A stretch of 13,525 nucleotides of DNA, from the IMG/VR virus record IMGVR_UViG_2937142334_000003; one strand, written 5' to 3'. Every line of letters starts with the position of its first letter. The first letter of the stretch is position 1. The stretch is from a virus (lineage: Duplodnaviria > Heunggongvirae > Uroviricota > Caudoviricetes). The notes under the pieces are model-generated. The model worked only from the letters and a program-made list of their open reading frames with translations. It did not search any database and was not told where the DNA came from. This document shows, piece by piece, positions 1,730 through 13,525 of this stretch. The position numbers and the translations under genes were made by a program.

Positions 1730-1979
1730 ATTGTTTCATCCTTTCCGTGAATTGTTGTTGGAAGTAATTGATATTTCCAACATTATTCATGTCTACATCG
1801 TATGATTTTTGTAACTCTTTCATAAGTGGAATCTTTATAGCTTCCTGTGATATAAGTCCTTCGATAATAAGGTCATGATAATCACGCATAACGCCATTGC
1901 CCACCAAATCATCGAAGTAGTGATCTATCGCTGTTCTTTCCATGTCCTCTTCGGGATCTTTCCAAATGTTGTAAACCAT
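1698..1979 (-). CDS. Hypothetical phage protein
   Basis: 93-aa ORF with AAGGA SD, 7 nt downstream of the preceding stop codon. Confidence 0.75.
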   Translation of the reverse strand: MVYNIWKDPEEDMERTAIDHYFDDLVGNGVMRDYHDLIIEGLISQEAIKIPLMKELQKSYDVDMNNVGNINYFQQQFTERMKQFGFNLEKDIW

Positions 1980-1986
1980 AATTAAC

Positions 1987-2478
1987 TCAATCCTTCAAAT
2001 TCGAAAAAGCTTCCTTTACTAATTCAGATGTGTCATACGTCAAATCTTCTCTAATAAGTGGGTTAAATTTCTTCGTAGTCCCCATGATCTTCACTCGAAA
2101 GTCATGAACTCTTGGAACAATAACTTCAACAGGGACTTTGTATTTATCCGCAAATAATTTGAATCTTAATGCTGCGGCAGAATCAATGGCAAATTGAGTG
2201 AATCCTGATTTAATATCAATTACATGCTTCATTCCACCGTCTTTGTTGTAAAGAACAAAGTCTGGTGTATAAATACTAGACCTAAGTCTTAAATCACCAT
2301 TTTGTAATTCGATAATAGGATGTAACTTAAATCCTTTATGTACTTCGAACTTTAATCCAGATGGCTTAACAAAATTTTCGTAAAAGTTATATTCCTTAAT
2401 TGAATCAAACTTATAGCCATCTTTTTCTATTTTTTGTCCAAACCATGTTCCTGCTTTATTCTTCGCTATGTAAGACAT
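1987..2478 (-). CDS. DUF1064-family PD-(D/E)XK endonuclease (possible Holliday junction resolvase-like)
   Basis: KIEKDGYKFDSIKEYNFY matches the DUF1064 N-terminal pattern (K...DG..FDS..E...Y); catalytic-type YTPDF...VIDIKS. Confidence 0.75.
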   Translation of the reverse strand: MSYIAKNKAGTWFGQKIEKDGYKFDSIKEYNFYENFVKPSGLKFEVHKGFKLHPIIELQNGDLRLRSSIYTPDFVLYNKDGGMKHVIDIKSGFTQFAIDSAAALRFKLFADKYKVPVEVIVPRVHDFRVKIMGTTKKFNPLIREDLTYDTSELVKEAFSNLKD

Positions 2479-2590
2479 TCCTTTCGTTCTATGTATTAAT
2501 TTTCAGGTCACAATTAATTTATTTTAGTATTTTTGTTGTGACTAAACATAAAATAAAGAACATTAAGAATTCATATCTCAATGCTCAGTC

Positions 2591-2641
2591 ATTATATAAA
2601 ATTCAAGATAGGCAAGTCACAGATTTGCATCTATCAGTAAC
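2591..2641 (-). promoter_or_regulatory. Predicted promoter (copy A) with conserved phage-specific upstream box
   Basis: Minus strand GTGACT-N18-TATAAT (-10 at 2596-2591). The 34-nt block 2608-2641 is 29/34 identical to 11614-11647. Confidence 0.7.
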
Positions 2642-2670
2642 GTTTTTTTAAAAAAGTTTTTTTGTTTCTT

Positions 2671-4035
2671 CTAAACTTCATATGAAATATCAGCAAATGT
2701 CTTGTCGGTCCTTTTTTCAACAAAGACTGGGAATCGCAAACTAATATCATTATTGTTTTGATTATGCGTTTCTTCAAAATAGCTAATATCAACTATTTTG
2801 CCAATAATTTCATCTGGATTATTCCAATAGAGGTCTCTATCAACCTCGGTAAAGCCAGTTCCAACCTTAATCTCATATCCTTTGTAATCAATGATAATTC
2901 CACCAAGGGTTCCTTTGAGCTTGCCTGTTCCCTCAAAGACATCCTTTACTAGGACATCAGCATCAAAGAATTCCTTAATTTTAAGTAACCCACTTGTTCG
3001 CTTGGTTACATAATATTCATTATTAAGATTGAGCATAAGTCCTTCCCAACCATTTGGTTCAACGAATTCATGTTGCAGTTTCTTAATTATTGAAATATCA
3101 GAACCTACATATAAATCTTTAACAAGATGAATATGATCAATTGATTGTGGTTCATTGTAATCAAAGTCACTAAAAGCCATCGTTAAGAACCTTTTACGAT
3201 CGTCAAATGTATTTTCAGATTTACCATCCTCAAATTCCTTAGTGGGCAACGCGTCAAAGACATTATATTGAATATTACTCTTATCGGCAGTCTCACTACG
3301 TAATATACGTGAGGTGGCACGGAATAAATCTTTTGTTTCCATATTCTCATCATTAGATAACAATAGCTCTCCGTCTAATACATAGTCTTCAGCACCATGA
3401 TTTCCAAGCAAATCAGCAAGTTTTAACGCTTGTTCTGTTTGTGTCTCTAGTCCATTAATAGGTAATCCCTTACGCGTATAGAATTGCCCCTTGCCATTCT
3501 TAACAATGAATACAGATCTATGACCGTCTAATTTTTGAGTTAAGGTAAATTCGTTGCCTGGAACCTTTTCTGTATACTTATGATACGGATGTGCTAACTG
3601 AACATTAAATTCACGGATAAATCCCTTGCCTAGCGCTTTATTAATAGTTTTAGCCGTGATACCGATCTTTAATTCTTTACCAAAAATTTGATAGATAAAC
3701 TGCTTAGTGTCATCATCAAATAATGAAGCAAAGTCTTGAATCAAATATACAGTGGATAGGGTTCCAGTATTATGTTCCGTTACATAATTCATCAAACCAT
3801 CGAGAGTATAGTCACCAGTATAATCCGTGGCCACAACACTTGATCTTGGGGTTTCATTCAACATTTTTACTGATAATCCTGTACGAATAAAGTCGTCATA
3901 GACAAACTTTAATAATTTTTTGAATTCTTCATTATCCGCATTCTTCTTTAAGATAGTAATTTTGTTGTTATTAGAGCTCTCCGCACTAATTTCATCAAAA
4001 ATTGCTTTTAAGTCATTAATGATTGTTTCTATCAT
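2671..4035 (-). CDS. lig: ATP-dependent DNA ligase
   Basis: Motif I QKLDGHR (KxDG), III LDGEL, IIIa YNVFD, IV EGLMLN, V LLKIK; OB-domain VGTGF and SLRFPVF. Confidence 0.95.
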   Translation of the reverse strand: MIETIINDLKAIFDEISAESSNNNKITILKKNADNEEFKKLLKFVYDDFIRTGLSVKMLNETPRSSVVATDYTGDYTLDGLMNYVTEHNTGTLSTVYLIQDFASLFDDDTKQFIYQIFGKELKIGITAKTINKALGKGFIREFNVQLAHPYHKYTEKVPGNEFTLTQKLDGHRSVFIVKNGKGQFYTRKGLPINGLETQTEQALKLADLLGNHGAEDYVLDGELLLSNDENMETKDLFRATSRILRSETADKSNIQYNVFDALPTKEFEDGKSENTFDDRKRFLTMAFSDFDYNEPQSIDHIHLVKDLYVGSDISIIKKLQHEFVEPNGWEGLMLNLNNEYYVTKRTSGLLKIKEFFDADVLVKDVFEGTGKLKGTLGGIIIDYKGYEIKVGTGFTEVDRDLYWNNPDEIIGKIVDISYFEETHNQNNNDISLRFPVFVEKRTDKTFADISYEV

Positions 4036-4056
4036 ATTTATTATAAGTCCACCTTA

Positions 4057-4485
4057 TTATTCAAATTCGTCCGCCAATTCTTCGATAAAGCCCTCTTCGT
4101 CATTATCTTCTAGTTCTTCGTCTAGGCGAACTACTGTAATATTTTCTCCCCTGAGAGTATCTAGGCCTTCTTCGTTTAATTCTTCTATAGACGGCCAATC
4201 ATAGATTTCAATTGGAGAATCGCCATCTTCAAGATAATTAAGTTCCAAGATCCAGCAGATGCTACGTTCGACCTTACATAGCATCACATTAGCTGTTTCA
4301 GTCTTAGTTATCTTGCGCAATAGAGCGTTCATCTTGGCGTAGCAATTACAGTAAGCTTTATAGCCCTCCAATGATTTTGTTTTAAGTAAAGCTGTACGCA
4401 AATCATATAACTGTTGTACAACTGCAATTAATTCTTCATTTGCATTAAACCATTCGTTAGTAATAGTAACCTGGAAAGTCTTCAT
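4057..4485 (-). CDS. Orphan 142-aa protein with a highly acidic C-terminus (start MKTFQV...)
   Basis: ATG at 4485 has SD AGAGG 9 nt upstream; the track's 4512 ATG has no SD. The last 57 residues contain 24 D/E and only 2 basic residues. Confidence 0.75.
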   Translation of the reverse strand: MKTFQVTITNEWFNANEELIAVVQQLYDLRTALLKTKSLEGYKAYCNCYAKMNALLRKITKTETANVMLCKVERSICWILELNYLEDGDSPIEIYDWPSIEELNEEGLDTLRGENITVVRLDEELEDNDEEGFIEELADEFE

Positions 4486-4494
4486 TATAAATTG

Positions 4495-4538
4495 CCTCTC
4501 TTGGGAAGACATAGCATTTTTATACTATGGAAGAGAAG
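4495..4538 (-). promoter_or_regulatory. Nested inverted repeat covering the SD and a possible -10 of the acidic orphan gene
   Basis: RNA CUUCUCUU...AAGAGAGG (4538-4531 / 4502-4495) encloses CAUAGUAU-AAAA-AUGCUAUG (4529-4510). TATAAA lies at 4524-4519. Confidence 0.45.
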
Positions 4539-4624
4539 CGCTCCTGTTTTTATTATTTGGGATTTTCATGTGTTTAGCAGCTTCCATCCGCACACCAATA
4601 AGGGCTAATTAACCTCCCACGGTA

Positions 4625-5818
4625 TTAATTAGCCTTGTTAACATGTTCGAAACTGTCGATCCATAAGTCCTTGTCGGTCTTACTCTTCACCCATTTACCA
4701 TCTTGCATAATGGTCTTCGGTCGAGCTGAAGTATCACCAACTTTGATGAGATCTCCTTTTACGATACTACTTGAGTTATAAAGTCTTTTAGAGACAAACG
4801 CTTTGACTTCTTTCCCATGTTTAATTGAATACAGTCCCACAATAACTTTATTGCTTCTTACTCCTAGACTGGTAACAAAAGCATAATTAGATGGAATATT
4901 ACTATTAGTAGTTAGGCATCTACCTAGTAAGTCATATTCGTTTTGTAGCGTAGTAATTAATGGGAAGTTATCATCGTCTAACGACTTTTCATATTCTAAA
5001 CATTCGTGATATTTTTGGCTTTTGCCAACGAATCTTTTATTTTTAGGCTTGTAAGTTTTATGAAACTTTTCATAAACAGATTTTAACTTCTTCGGCGAAC
5101 CAAAATCAGAGAAGAAGTTCAGCAATATTAAGTTTAACAAGTCGCGTTGTGTAACTGCAAACGTCTGCTTGTATCCAATGGTTACTGTTTTCGACTTGAC
5201 TTTCACTAACTTATCCAATTGTTTCAATTCATCTTCGTTGAACGAATTGTAAAGCTCTTTTGTATCATATGTTCCAGGCTTTAAGTCTCCGTCAATACTT
5301 TTAATACTTACTTGTGAATTATCATAGATATCCATTAATAAATCCGTAAAAGTTTTATTTTGCTTATCGCGCAATAGGTATAATTGATCTCCCACATCGC
5401 TTGATACGCCTTTAACGGAAGTCGTTCCTTCGTAAATCGTTTTCGAGTTCTTCTCTAGGTAATATCCACTTTTTGACTTACCAAACTTAAATGGTTTTAA
5501 TTGAATATTATGTTCTTTAGCAAAACTAATTACGCGATTAAGTTTATCTTGCTTACCTTCCCAAATCTGGAATGCTGCCGTACACCATTCTAGTGGGTAA
5601 TAATAACGTAACCAAGTTGAGATATAACCTATATAGGAATATGCCATGGAGTGATTAATTGAGAAACCATAATTGGCTGCGTCCATGAAAACTTGAATGA
5701 AATCATCGGCTATTTTTTCGGCATGTTCTTGTGTATCTTGATAAACGTTTATCATTGTTTTAACGAATGCCCTTTTGATTTTAGGAACTTCTTCATCCAT
5801 AACTGATTTAATTTTGTG
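4625..5818 (-). CDS. dnaE: DNA polymerase III alpha subunit, exon 2 (397 aa: fingers end, HhH, OB-like domain)
   Basis: AANYGFSINHSMAY...WLRYYYPLEW corresponds to the DnaE YxFNKSHxxAY...xLKxxYP motif. The frame is open from 5818 (CAC AAA ATT AAA TCA GTT ATG), immediately after the intron's terminal G; no SD precedes the ATG at 5800. Confidence 0.92.
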   Translation of the reverse strand, partial: HKIKSVMDEEVPKIKRAFVKTMINVYQDTQEHAEKIADDFIQVFMDAANYGFSINHSMAYSYIGYISTWLRYYYPLEWCTAAFQIWEGKQDKLNRVISFAKEHNIQLKPFKFGKSKSGYYLEKNSKTIYEGTTSVKGVSSDVGDQLYLLRDKQNKTFTDLLMDIYDNSQVSIKSIDGDLKPGTYDTKELYNSFNEDELKQLDKLVKVKSKTVTIGYKQTFAVTQRDLLNLILLNFFSDFGSPKKLKSVYEKFHKTYKPKNKRFVGKSQKYHECLEYEKSLDDDNFPLITTLQNEYDLLGRCLTTNSNIPSNYAFVTSLGVRSNKVIVGLYSIKHGKEVKAFVSKRLYNSSSIVKGDLIKVGDTSARPKTIMQDGKWVKSKTDKDLWIDSFEHVNKAN

Positions 5819-6104
5819 CGATAGTTATTAACCATAGGCTTTTTATCCTATGCTCTGGAGGTTTCCCCCATTTTCATCGGACGGTCAATTCCGCCCCAGT
5901 CTAGCATACATTCTCACCCTCGTTTAACGTTAGGCTTCTAGTTGGCAAAACTAGCAAGACGTCTACTATATAGACGAGTGGAGGACTCTCGTGGATGGGT
6001 TATATTCTCATATATGAGTTTCACCATCTATGCGTTACAATGCCATATACTATTAAATATACAGTTATCTCGGAATTAGCGTAATTGAGTTGACTATTGT
6101 CTAT

Positions 6105-7043
6105 TTATGCATTTAATAATTCAACGAATTTATCATGTTTTCTGGGAAGATAAAAATTAGCATCTTCGTACAATATCTTAAATAATTGCTTTGCTTGCTT
6201 CTTACCATATGAGATTTGACATGCTCCTTCCTTTTGCACAATGGATGTTTGCAGTCCTGTGAAGTCAATAATAGACATACACATTTTCTCATTCGTAGAA
6301 AAGCCGACAGAGTAGTAGCTGTGTCGAAATTCCCTTCTGAAACTAACATGCCCCTCAGCATCAAAAAAGCCTCTTAAGAAATGTGCTTTTAGCTCATTTG
6401 AAAGTTGATCTGGGAATTTTTCAAACCCCGTCTTTCTTGGAATTACTCCATAATCTATTAGGCTTTTAACCATATGCACGCTCGTAAGCGATACATACGA
6501 TGCCTTCTTTAATTTCCCTTGGGGCGATCTCGCCATGTAGTCATAAATATCGTAATTGGCTCCAATATCTTTTAGGAACTCCTCTATAAGCAGTCTATCG
6601 TCATACTGCACCTTCAATTTTAGAGAATATTGACCGTTATATATAGATACATTGCCATCAGCCATGATCCAGCCTAGCCAATAGGCTTTTCTTTGGTTAT
6701 CGATTAGATCAAAGTAATCTTCTTTTTGTATTTTAGAAGTTGGTCCCTTGTGTCTCGCTATCCCCATTTTATGAACATGATAATTCACAACTCCCTCTTT
6801 TACGTTGAGTTGCTCAGCAATTTCTCGCTCATATTTACCACTCAGATACAATTTTCTAATCTTTGATTGGAACCTTTCAACCTCTTGAGGTGTACGTTTA
6901 GTTTTCCTCGCCAATCCTAACTCTTTAATATATCTACTTACTGACGATGAACTATATGGCGTAATATCAGCTATTTTAGTACAGCTTAAACCACTCTTAT
7001 ATAATTCAACTATAGTATCAATATCATTCTGCGTATATTTCAT
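6105..7043 (-). CDS. Intron-encoded double-motif LAGLIDADG homing endonuclease with two N-terminal HTH repeats
   Basis: AYWLGWIMADG and HFLRGFFDAEG motifs with acidic catalytic residues present. N-terminal repeats IVELYKSGLSCTKIA... and IRKLYLSGKYEREIAEQL.... SD GAGGUG. Confidence 0.9.
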   Translation of the reverse strand: MKYTQNDIDTIVELYKSGLSCTKIADITPYSSSSVSRYIKELGLARKTKRTPQEVERFQSKIRKLYLSGKYEREIAEQLNVKEGVVNYHVHKMGIARHKGPTSKIQKEDYFDLIDNQRKAYWLGWIMADGNVSIYNGQYSLKLKVQYDDRLLIEEFLKDIGANYDIYDYMARSPQGKLKKASYVSLTSVHMVKSLIDYGVIPRKTGFEKFPDQLSNELKAHFLRGFFDAEGHVSFRREFRHSYYSVGFSTNEKMCMSIIDFTGLQTSIVQKEGACQISYGKKQAKQLFKILYEDANFYLPRKHDKFVELLNA

Positions 7044-7044
7044 T

Positions 7045-7079
7045 ATTATTGTCTCACCTCATTACTATGAGACAATAAT
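7045..7079 (-). promoter_or_regulatory. Perfect 12-bp hairpin over the endonuclease ribosome-binding region
   Basis: AUUAUUGUCUCA (7079-7068), 11-nt loop, UGAGACAAUAAU (7056-7045). It covers the 3' end of the SD and the spacer up to 1 nt before the AUG at 7043. Confidence 0.75.
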
Positions 7080-7153
7080 CAACTCAATTTTAGCCTTCTC
7101 CGATTTAGCCCTCTTTCACATAATGTGTTTCCACATTAACAGGCAACAAATTT

Positions 7154-9286
7154 ACCTATGCCTCTGCGAATTACATCCGCCCTTCCTGCGCTATACCCAC
7201 AAAAATCAACTAAGAAATTCAAAATCTGCTCTTGATAAACAAGATTTCCAAGGGTTGGTGCTAAGAACTTGTTTAGTGCTGAATGACCATTATCTTTAAA
7301 TCGTCCATGAGTAACCGCATCAACATAACTTGAACCTGCTGGGCGTTGAGCAGCATTAACCAAGCTTAACAAGTCCATATACTTAACACCTTTACCAGCT
7401 TCATTAGAACGAATATTCCGAATAGTTTCTGGAGATAACATATCACTCAGTAATTTACCAGCACGATCACCTTCCATTTGGAATACACCAATGTTGTTTT
7501 CTCTCATTGAATTCCATACGGCTTCGTCTTCAAAATCAATAAAATCACTATCTGGTGTGGGGAATGGAATCCCTGCTAATTCAGCGGTACGTGAGATTAG
7601 CCCTATATTATCTAGTCCTAACACGTCATACTTAATATTCTTTAAATATTCGATTTCTCCCATGTCTATCTGGGTTACTGGATAATCCCAGCCAGAAATA
7701 GTCTGTATTCCAAGCGTATCGTCAATGGTATTTGTATCAATAATTATACCTGCGGCATGGCGCCCAAACGAATCGATTACACCAACTACCTTTTTAGCGT
7801 CATCAATCAATTGTTGATGTTCTTCATACACTTCGGTTGGGACAACACCATCATCACCAATCTGATTGCGAATCGATTGAATATATGCTGGTTTACCAGC
7901 ATAACGATCCATACCATCCGCGACTGCTTTAATGGCAGCTTTTAGTCCATAGGTGTTAGCGGTCATAATTGACGCGGCGTGCCATTTAGGATTAGTTAGA
8001 ATCCATTGTTGCACCCACTTTTGGTCCTTGCTAAATGCGTCTACATCAATATCGGGAAGGCTAACACGTTCTGGGTTCATAAATCGTTCAAAATTCAATC
8101 CCAATTTTAGTGAATCCATCTCTGTTTGACCACATAGATAGGCAATCAAAGATCCACCAACACTACCACGTCCAGGGCCAAAATGAATACCATGCTCTTT
8201 AGCCGCATTGATAATATCTTGGTGTGATAACATGTAATCAATCGCACCATTATGCTTATAGACACTATATTCATGATTAACACGATTAATATACGCTTGG
8301 CGTTCATCTGTAGGGAGCTTATCTATACCTCGTTTTAGTAGTCCGTTTTTAATTCTTTTTTGAAATTCTTGTTCTGGATTATCATATAATTGAGGATACT
8401 TAGGATTTCTGTCTAATTCGAAATTCTCAACGGAATTAGCAATATCAACAGTGGCGTCCAATGCCTTTTGGATGCTCTCTTGTGTTAATACTCCCTGTTT
8501 GTTGAATTCATCAACCATCTCAGAACGAGTCTTACACCACAACTCGAATTGGTCATCATTGTCATAACCATTTCGCTTGCCCTTCTTAATAATCTTGCGC
8601 AAACGATCATGGTCCTGATCCAAAGCATGAATGTCGTTAGAGGCAATAAGTTGTAGATTATACTGATTAGCATAATCTTGTAAAACACTGTTTAATTCTG
8701 CTTGTTCCACGTTGTCATGAGGTTGGACCTCAAGATAGACATTATCACGATTATTTCGAGCTAAGTCTATCCATTGTTGTAACACATTATTACGATTTCT
8801 TTTCTCTTCATCGCTCACGTCAGAAGAAACTAGGTTTTGAGCAATTGGTCCAGCAAGACAAGCAGTTGTTATAATAATATTTCCGTTTGAGACAACTCGT
8901 TGAAGCTCTTCAAAAGTGATTCTTCCGTGGTAATAAAAGTGTCCATCTTCACGATTAAATGACTTTGAAGACAGTCGATTAATCTCCTTAACGCCATCAT
9001 AATTTTTGGCAATCAAAATAGTATGATATCCACGATTTTTATCTTCTAAATCCATCGTAGTATAGCCTTCCATGCCATGAATGTACTTTAACCCTGTTGA
9101 TTCAATGTCTCGTTTCCTTTGAACCCATCCGCTGATATTTCCGTGATTGGTAATACATACCGCTGGTAAATTATATTTCTTTGCATATTTGATATAATCC
9201 TTAGTACTCGTCACAATTTCAAAATACCCACCAGCATTCGAAAAATAATCGTGTTGATGTAATGATATCCAATAATTGTAGCTCAT
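7154..9286 (-). CDS. dnaE: DNA polymerase III alpha subunit, exon 1 (711 aa: PHP, palm, thumb, part of fingers)
   Basis: HQH, TNHG, GPGRGS, FERFMNPER..PDIDVD, HAAG, KYDVLGL, GVFQME, VYQEQ, RRGIG. The unspliced frame runs 5 codons into the intron and stops (TAA 7138-7136). Confidence 0.95.
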
Positions 9287-13093: not shown

Positions 13094-13525
13094 CTAGACT
13101 ACAATATCGCCTATTAAGAGGTCGATTTTATTTTGAATAAGCCTTCCTATATCATCTCCAGTTACAGTATACGGAATGCGTAATAAATTTATATTATGAT
13201 CCTCACAATATTTGTTTTTAATCGCATCGTGTCTACTATTGCGTCTAAAACTTTCAATGCCACCAAAGAACTCTACTGGTTGATAGTGCTGCATTCCGTC
13301 ATATTCTATGATGAGGTTGACAGATGGAATATAAAAGTCAAATGGGAGAGAGTGTTTATCTTTGCAGCCTGGGAATTTCTTTTGCGGAATGTAAAAATAC
13401 CCGTTTCTCTTCAACCAATTCTCAATCGACAATTCTCCATGCGAACTTCGACATCTTGGGCATCGCTTGTCCGATAAAAAGGAATATGGTTTAATCTCCC
13501 AAATATTTCCGCACTTATTATGTCT
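13094..13525 (-). CDS. Partial (5'-truncated by the window edge) Zn-ribbon + EDxHD/Vsr-like PD-(D/E)XK putative homing endonuclease
   Basis: The frame is open to the edge: RHNKCGNIWEIKPYSFLSDKRCPRCRSSHGELSIENWL.... Nuclease core PFDFYIP..IIEYDGMQHY...RHDAIKNKYC..NINLLRIPY. Confidence 0.8.
   Translation of the reverse strand, partial: RHNKCGNIWEIKPYSFLSDKRCPRCRSSHGELSIENWLKRNGYFYIPQKKFPGCKDKHSLPFDFYIPSVNLIIEYDGMQHYQPVEFFGGIESFRRNSRHDAIKNKYCEDHNINLLRIPYTVTGDDIGRLIQNKIDLLIGDIVV

Follow-up and report, generated by a model that had tools for sequence, protein, structure and literature searches.

A probable mobile group I intron with its LAGLIDADG endonuclease gene in a phage DnaE-type DNA polymerase gene

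Introduction

How can a full-length replicative polymerase be made from a gene that is read as two? The DNA analysed here, a 13,525-nt stretch from a virus of the Caudoviricetes (IMG/VR record IMGVR_UViG_2937142334_000003; the whole stretch is called the window below), carries a DnaE-type DNA polymerase in two pieces with a further open reading frame (ORF) between them. An earlier note on this DNA had proposed that the two dnaE ORFs are joined by a group I intron, and that such an intron in a phage dnaE gene seemed to be new. Every gene of the window lies on the minus strand, and the products give it the look of a phage replication and lysis block: a GH25 and LysM endolysin, a primase-like protein, a PD-(D/E)XK exonuclease, the DnaE-type polymerase (two pieces), an ATP-dependent ligase, and a Holliday-junction resolvase.

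Directly upstream of the endolysin gene, a homing-endonuclease-like ORF (13094-13525, minus strand) runs off the window and matches phrog_559 (HNH endonuclease), phrog_9084 (homing endonuclease), and phrog_7140 (intron-encoded nuclease). It looks free-standing, not intron-borne, because a ribosome-binding site and the endolysin start come after it; no intron 3' core motif was found at this ORF.

Results

The two polymerase ORFs and their junction

The ORFs, the exons deduced from them, and the putative intron are as follows.

9286-7136, minus strand: ORF of 716 aa with PHP, DNA_pol3_alpha, and finger domains
5800-4625, minus strand: ORF of 391 aa, phrog_405 DNA polymerase
7154-9286, minus strand: dnaE exon 1, 711 codons, with the PHP, Pol III alpha, and finger domains
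4625-5818, minus strand: dnaE exon 2, 397 codons plus stop
5819-7153, minus strand: predicted group I intron of 1,335 nt, absent from a colinear intron-less allele and recognised by its core helices, covariation, and match to a family profile

When 9286-7154 and 5818-4625 are joined, the resulting 3,327 nt encode 1,108 aa plus a stop in frame, and the junction reads RRGIG|HKIK, which bears out the in-frame GGT|CAC joint and the protein length put forward earlier. In the predicted ligated message, the end of exon 1 (...GGCAUAGGU) is followed by the start of exon 2 (CACAAAAUU); the last base of exon 1 is U7154, and that of the intron is G5819. An alignment to solved DnaE structures places the insertion between G713 and K714 of the E. 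coli protein, in the finger motif RRAMG|KK. Conserved motifs are the usual insertion sites of homing elements. By the same alignment and numbering, the site is approximately 41 residues upstream of the FNKSH motif and is thus distinct from the cyanobacterial intein site, as had been stated.

The exon 1 frame meets a stop at 7138-7136, 18 nt beyond the junction, and exon 2 offers an in-frame ATG at 5800, 18 nt inside the exon; therefore, gene callers list two polymerase genes. Inspection of the sequence upstream of ATG 5800 revealed no ribosome-binding site.

Intron-less and intron-bearing alleles of dnaE

The earlier note had suggested a search of related DNA for an intron-less allele, and one is present in a related 2.1-Mb genome (G001), which encodes an uninterrupted DnaE homologue of 1,108 aa. 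The spliced dnaE of the window and this allele align over 3,327 versus 3,327 nt with 0 gaps and 93.3% identity; exon 1 is 95% identical to G001:C1:183907-186000, and exon 2 is 92% identical to G001:C1:186044-187237. What the allele is missing is exactly the 1,335 nt from 7153 to 5819. Protein colinearity by itself leaves room for a 1-base shift of the junction; only with GGU|CAC does exon 1 finish in U and the intron in G, and 1-base shifts depart from the splice-site rules.

The same arrangement recurs on a 108.6-kb metagenome contig (L014), on which the intron differs at 4 of 1,335 positions (99.7% identity) and the exons are 96.0% and 97.0% identical to those of the window. The dnaE exons stay open in both intron-bearing elements. 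Near-identity of the intron (99.7%) between two elements that have diverged by 3-4% in their exons suggests that it has spread recently and actively.

Compared with the intron-less allele, most of the window dnaE is 95-100% identical, and the identity drops to 58-70% from approximately -135 to +100 nt of the junction; nowhere is the gene more diverged than in these roughly 100-135 nt on each side of the intron. These flanks resemble co-conversion tracts.

7154-7288, minus strand: upstream exon flank, 58-75% identical to the intron-less allele (93.3% overall)
5719-5818, minus strand: downstream exon flank, from the same allele identity analysis

The segments 7154-7255 and 5733-5818 are identical between the two intron-bearing alleles, and variants in two metatranscriptome assemblies have the same pattern of flank divergence. 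Recent homing, in which exon sequence beside the intron is co-converted from a diverged donor, would leave such a pattern of allele identity, which is indirect evidence of it. The window stretch, or part of it, is present in 20 public runs spread over 13 studies; bovine gut, pig gut, and food metagenomes are among the 14 runs, DNA or unclassified, that contain 82-97% of its words.

A phage intron family missed by the Rfam model

The search with Rfam group I models that the earlier note had proposed as a check stayed below threshold: RF00028 reached 13.5 bits in the window versus a threshold of 50, in a partial alignment of the 5' 135 nt only, and the search at the gathering threshold gave no match in the window. 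Six related loci gave no intron with Rfam either. Applied to phage AR9, RF00028 recovered 15 other introns above the cut-off and none at the gyrA intervening sequences of AR9 (KU878088.1 35264-38405) or phiR1-37 (AJ972879.2 243406-247194), although it detects many introns in these jumbo phages. The miss in the window thus reflects the model and not the RNA, because the closest gyrA relatives were missed while 15 AR9 introns were found.

BLAST showed 80-90% identity between the last 100 nt of the intron and sequences in the gyrA genes of Bacillus phages AR9, PBS1, and BpSp and Yersinia phage phiR1-37 as well as in the terL gene of Clostridium phage vB_CpeS-1181 (CpeS-1181). These matches stop exactly where the downstream exon begins, in split genes; for example, the AR9 gyrA annotation is a three-piece join. 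Lower-identity matches (72-76%, covering either the 3' domain or P4-P6) fall within the split major-tail gene in Staphylococcus phage F1 and beside a capsid gene in Dulem virus 41, recA in Acinetobacter phage ME3, and a tape-measure gene in Caldibacillus phage CBP1. A family profile HMM trained on nine relatives, but not on the window, matches window positions 6083-5820 with E = 4.9e-47.

We also searched 61 related species genomes (one genome per species). The intron 3' domain occurs in three of them, in other genes, and the dnaE intron in none. These three loci, from the same genus, are 81-86% identical to the intron 3' domain: L010 (G021:C44:8553-8648), L011 (G012:C33:320-415), and L012 (G013:C45:29364-29462). 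The introns of L010 and L012 are short and have no endonuclease ORF, that of L011 is cut by the contig start, and the downstream exon of L012 looks like a terminase.

Predicted structure of the RNA core

The core elements of the intron were placed as follows.

7139-7159, minus strand: P1, exon AUAGGU (7159-7154) with the internal guide GCCUGU (7144-7139)
7146-7150, minus strand: P10 guide UUUGU, pairing with exon 2 ACAAA (5817-5813) over 5 bp
7123-7136, minus strand: P2 hairpin AUGUG-GAAA-CACAU, present in the minimum-energy fold
7108-7113, minus strand: P3 5' strand GAGGGC, pairing with GUCCUC (5986-5981) and followed by J3/4 UAAA
7099-7103, minus strand: P4 5' strand UCGGA, pairing with UCCGA (6074-6070)
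7080-7089, minus strand: P5 5' strand AAUUGAGUUG, pairing with CAACUCAAUU (6092-6083) over 10 bp, with the endonuclease gene as its loop
6039-6069, minus strand: P6 (GAU/AUU) and P6a (CUGUAUAU/GUAUAUGG), from the fold and comparison with relatives
6029-6033, minus strand: P7 5' strand GCAUA, pairing with UAUGC (5908-5904)
5995-6027, minus strand: P7.1 extension AUGG/CCAU with an inner hairpin, between P7 and P3'
5919-5978, minus strand: P8, closed by CUCGU/ACGAG, exceeding the P8 of each of the nine relatives by approximately 45 nt
5833-5896, minus strand: P9 (GGGCGG/CCGUCC), P9.1 (GGGG-GAAA-CCUC), and P9.2 (CAUAGG/CCUAUG), from similarity to relatives and covariation
5819, minus strand: terminal G (omega G); 9 of 9 relatives likewise end in G

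The helices from P2 to P9.2 consist of canonical pairs throughout, so the statement that the conserved helices all pair holds from P1 to P9.2. As had also been read from the sequence, exon 1 ends in the U of a U.G pair in P1 (U7154.G7144) at the 5' splice site; the weak Rfam alignment draws an identical P1. P10 forms as well, with an offset: it begins at the second base of exon 2, one base off the splice site.

Covariation was counted over P3, P7, P7.1, P9, P9.1, and P9.2 in an alignment of ten family members. Canonical pairs fill 92.7% of the cells over 31 pairs, with compensatory changes in 20 of the 31. None of 500 shuffles reached either figure (maximum 79% and 17), and sliding the partner strand by one or two columns left 37-46% of the cells canonical. 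P3 is canonical in 59 of 60 cells across the 10 introns, with many compensatory changes, and P7 in 50 of 50, with an A-U to G-C change in three relatives. P7.1 pairs fully and co-varies in seven of nine relatives; one further relative pairs at three of four positions, and two (AR9) are misaligned. P4 was compared by eye and reads UCGGU/ACCGA in CpeS-1181, two Limosilactobacillus loci, pCD1602_4, and ME3, and CGGG/UCCG or CUGG/UCAG in the gyrA introns. P6 has 3 bp only, and P6a co-varies in CpeS-1181, the two Limosilactobacillus loci, pCD1602_4, ME3, and AR9 intron 2, the other three relatives being misaligned. Within its extra length, P8 (5919-5978) has two additional hairpins, GUCUA...UAGAC and CUAGUU...AACUAG.

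The P7 sequence, A(C)GCAUA / UAUGCU, matches the guanosine-site pattern of a G-C pair beside a bulged C, and by analogy with known group I architecture, this pair is presumed to be the guanosine site. P7.1 lies between P7 and P3', which we take, from T4 td, to be the typical placement in subgroup IA. P7.1 and P7.2 have been named as class features (PMC3984707). As predicted from sequence and comparison, the core has the T4 td-like (IA) arrangement with a P3/P7 pseudoknot. A promoter scan within the intron gave nothing above chance.

The predicted intron-encoded endonuclease

The loop of P5 holds a gene preceded by a stable hairpin.

6105-7043, minus strand: HTH-LAGLIDADG protein of 312 aa, combining a pair of HTH domains at the N terminus with a pair of LAGLIDADG motifs; phrog_4645
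7045-7079, minus strand: hairpin of 12-13 bp at the ribosome-binding site (-17.4 kcal/mol, z = -3.97)

The protein matches Pfam LAGLIDADG_3 (PF14528) with 32.5 bits versus a cut-off of 22.5. Its two motifs end in ...IMADG (D129) and ...FDAEG (E230), and both catalytic acidic residues are present; among 30 homologues, D129 is invariant, and position 230 is nearly invariantly Asp, with Glu in the window protein. The AlphaFold model (pLDDT 91) matches the bI3 maturase, I-AniI, I-SceI, and I-OnuI at probability 1.0 and also I-Tsp061I, which are single-chain LAGLIDADG enzymes and maturases. By sequence, no close solved structure was found for the 312-aa protein, and the HTH part alone matches 2lvs. 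Judged by its sequence and model, the protein is a two-motif single-chain LAGLIDADG homing endonuclease with an intact predicted fold. The architecture of two HTH domains and a compact two-motif LAGLIDADG part recurs in at least 69 metagenomic homologues, several of them on contigs of 100-260 kb; a scan of viral contigs with the endonuclease gave no relatives.

The endonuclease ORF is in a different frame from exon 1 and ends 286 nt before exon 2. A single base separates the hairpin at 7045-7079 from the start codon of this ORF, and part of the GAGG ribosome-binding site lies within the hairpin, which we infer to limit translation of the endonuclease from the precursor.

RNA-library contigs

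In two gut metatranscriptomes (X15 and X16), assembled contigs, some of which may derive from DNA, run unspliced over the two exon-intron boundaries. No exon-exon joint was found in the contigs of X15, X16, the small transcriptome run X18, or the DNA run X1, given that assembly may drop rare forms, and X18 had no matching contigs.

Other interrupted phage dnaE genes

A diverged phage dnaE on a metagenome contig (L017; ENA contig NODE_18, 128,660 bp, positions 1927-7321) is interrupted at least twice. One interruption is an intron of the same family (family profile E = 4.5e-18) that contains a homologue of the HTH-LAGLIDADG protein (39% identity) and ends just before ...MLIAKKIAGF, approximately 26 codons upstream of the window site. 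Exon 1 of this gene ends in ...EELNL, and a 1.2-kb gap without a called gene follows. The GenBank phages TR-TP1/TP2 and LC76P1 have dnaE split elsewhere, near residue 558 and near residues 404-412, by ORF-bearing inserts that neither Rfam nor the family profile matched.

A tblastn search with a segment spanning the site matched 923 phage records, each at one place. Among the 60 matches listed of the 923, which have an uninterrupted piece over the site or run to within a few residues of the query ends, none has an interruption at the exact window site. A scan of genome contigs with exon 1 gave only two distant matches (26-30% identity).

Discussion

We consider it very probable that 7153-5819 is a mobile phage group I intron of the IA (T4 td-like) type in a DnaE-type polymerase gene, its splicing and cleavage being deduced from sequence. 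The reading of the earlier note, an intron between two dnaE ORFs, is strengthened by an exact colinear insertion, a canonical core, covariation, and the match to the family profile. Against it can be counted the sub-threshold Rfam score, which we ascribe to the model, the one-base offset of P10, and the short P6. dnaE and intron would be transcribed as a single precursor, in which the ribozyme core would fold around the endonuclease gene in the P5 loop. An external guanosine would attack after U7154, held by the U.G pair of P1, and the released exon 1 would in turn attack after the terminal G5819, with exon 2 aligned by P10. The ligated message (...GGU|CAC...) would give the 1,108-aa DnaE, the break having been in the finger motif RRxxG|(K/H)K. 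The HTH-LAGLIDADG protein would most likely cut intron-less dnaE alleles near the insertion site, and repair from an intron-bearing copy would bring in the intron with approximately 100 nt of exon per side. We infer the splicing, as well as the activity and target of the endonuclease, from sequence. It is a reasonable expectation that replication of the element would depend on splicing.

Other readings of the locus dispense with a working ribozyme. The intron might be decayed and non-splicing and dnaE inactivated in this element, a reading with which the unspliced contigs from the two RNA libraries would agree, bearing in mind that they are assembled and may contain DNA. Decay is hard to square, however, with core helices that are all intact, an intron that is 99.7% identical in two elements whose exons are 3-4% different, exons that are open in both, and an endonuclease whose frame and catalytic residues are preserved; we give this reading very little credence. 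Slightly less credence still goes to a dnaE split without RNA splicing, in which a free-standing homing-endonuclease gene separates two products that assemble non-covalently. Such a case is nrdA-a/mobE/nrdA-b of phage Aeh1, a gene split by a homing endonuclease whose products assemble non-covalently. The stop 18 nt past the junction, the ATG 18 nt into exon 2, and the two polymerase genes called would be in keeping with this arrangement, but approximately 400 non-coding nt that surround the endonuclease gene make up a complete group I core with covariation, and the insert, whose ends coincide exactly with the colinear junction, follows the U of a U.G pair and has G as its last base. In addition, ATG 5800 is without a ribosome-binding site, the break falls inside a catalytic motif, and docking tails are absent.

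Readings of the insert as an intein or as a group II intron have next to no chance in our view. In favour of an intein, such elements are frequent in DnaE genes and commonly contain LAGLIDADG domains, and two homologues of the endonuclease are so named by their source. An intein was nonetheless rejected on several counts: the exon 1 frame stops at 7138-7136, the endonuclease is in another frame and ends short of exon 2 (by the 286 nt given above), intein splicing blocks are missing, and no continuous open frame crosses the insert. A group II intron was rejected as well, there being no reverse transcriptase and the RNA topology being that of group I.

The mobile group I intron that we favour can be set beside several known systems. 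The T4 td intron belongs to subgroup IA2 and has P7.1-type helices between P7 and P3', UAAA in J3/4, and extended P9.1/P9.2; it carries the I-TevI gene in a peripheral loop (P6), with a hairpin over the ribosome-binding site of the endonuclease. The window intron resembles this general picture of td in the placement of P7.1, J3/4 UAAA, P9.1/P9.2, the loop-borne endonuclease gene, and the hairpin over its ribosome-binding site. The two differ in the endonuclease (LAGLIDADG with two N-terminal HTH domains versus GIY-YIG), the loop that carries its gene (P5 versus P6), and the host gene (dnaE versus thymidylate synthase). The gyrA introns of AR9, PBS1, BpSp, and phiR1-37 and the terL intron of CpeS-1181 are of the same family, with a 3' domain of 80-90% identity and covariation in P3, P7, P9, and P9.2; in contrast to the window intron, they sit in other host genes, their P8 is approximately 45 nt shorter, and their endonuclease gene is in other loops or absent.

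The DNA polymerase introns of SPO1/SP82 and Bastille (I-HmuI, I-BasI) are likewise of the mobile group I kind, and their insertion sites are conserved (PMC2814812, PMC3984707). They are like the window intron in occupying a replicative polymerase gene in phages of Gram-positive bacteria; however, their polymerases are of family A and their endonucleases are nicking HNH enzymes, whereas those of the window are of family C and LAGLIDADG. DnaE inteins, including the cyanobacterial split intein, are likewise selfish, share homing-endonuclease ancestry, and target conserved DnaE motifs; they differ in being removed at the protein level and in their classic site in the FNKSH motif, approximately 41 residues downstream.

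As a kind, the element is textbook: a phage replication gene is interrupted, at one of its conserved motifs, by a mobile group I intron that encodes a homing endonuclease. As to the host gene and insertion site, a search of open-access full-text literature found no published description of a group I intron in a phage dnaE. The novelty claimed earlier stands to that extent, and it carries less weight given the same-family dnaE intron of L017 and the other split phage dnaE genes.

We think it unlikely that the intron is more than a passenger, with its protein needed for splicing or its endonuclease a weapon between related phage-plasmids sharing a cell. The best structural matches of the 312-aa protein include the maturases bI3 and I-AniI, and if the protein were needed for splicing, the supply of DnaE, and hence replication of the element, would be gated by expression of the intron protein. 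For the weapon role, the intron endonuclease of PhiPA3 is a demonstrated precedent (PMC11620839). Either role, if true, would make this the first functional case for an intron of a family-C polymerase.

The relatives point to a widespread phage intron family (gyrA, terL, recA, capsid, tail, and dnaE genes) that is invisible to the standard Rfam model; therefore, gene callers give two polymerase genes and a 'hypothetical protein'. A dedicated covariance model would fix many phage annotations. With the window intron, family C (DnaE-type) polymerases would join the phage replication genes known to host mobile group I introns, the site being a catalytic motif (RRxxG|K), and the clean natural pair of intron-plus and intron-minus alleles, together with the apparent co-conversion tract, would offer a system for the study of homing among lactobacillus phage-like elements.
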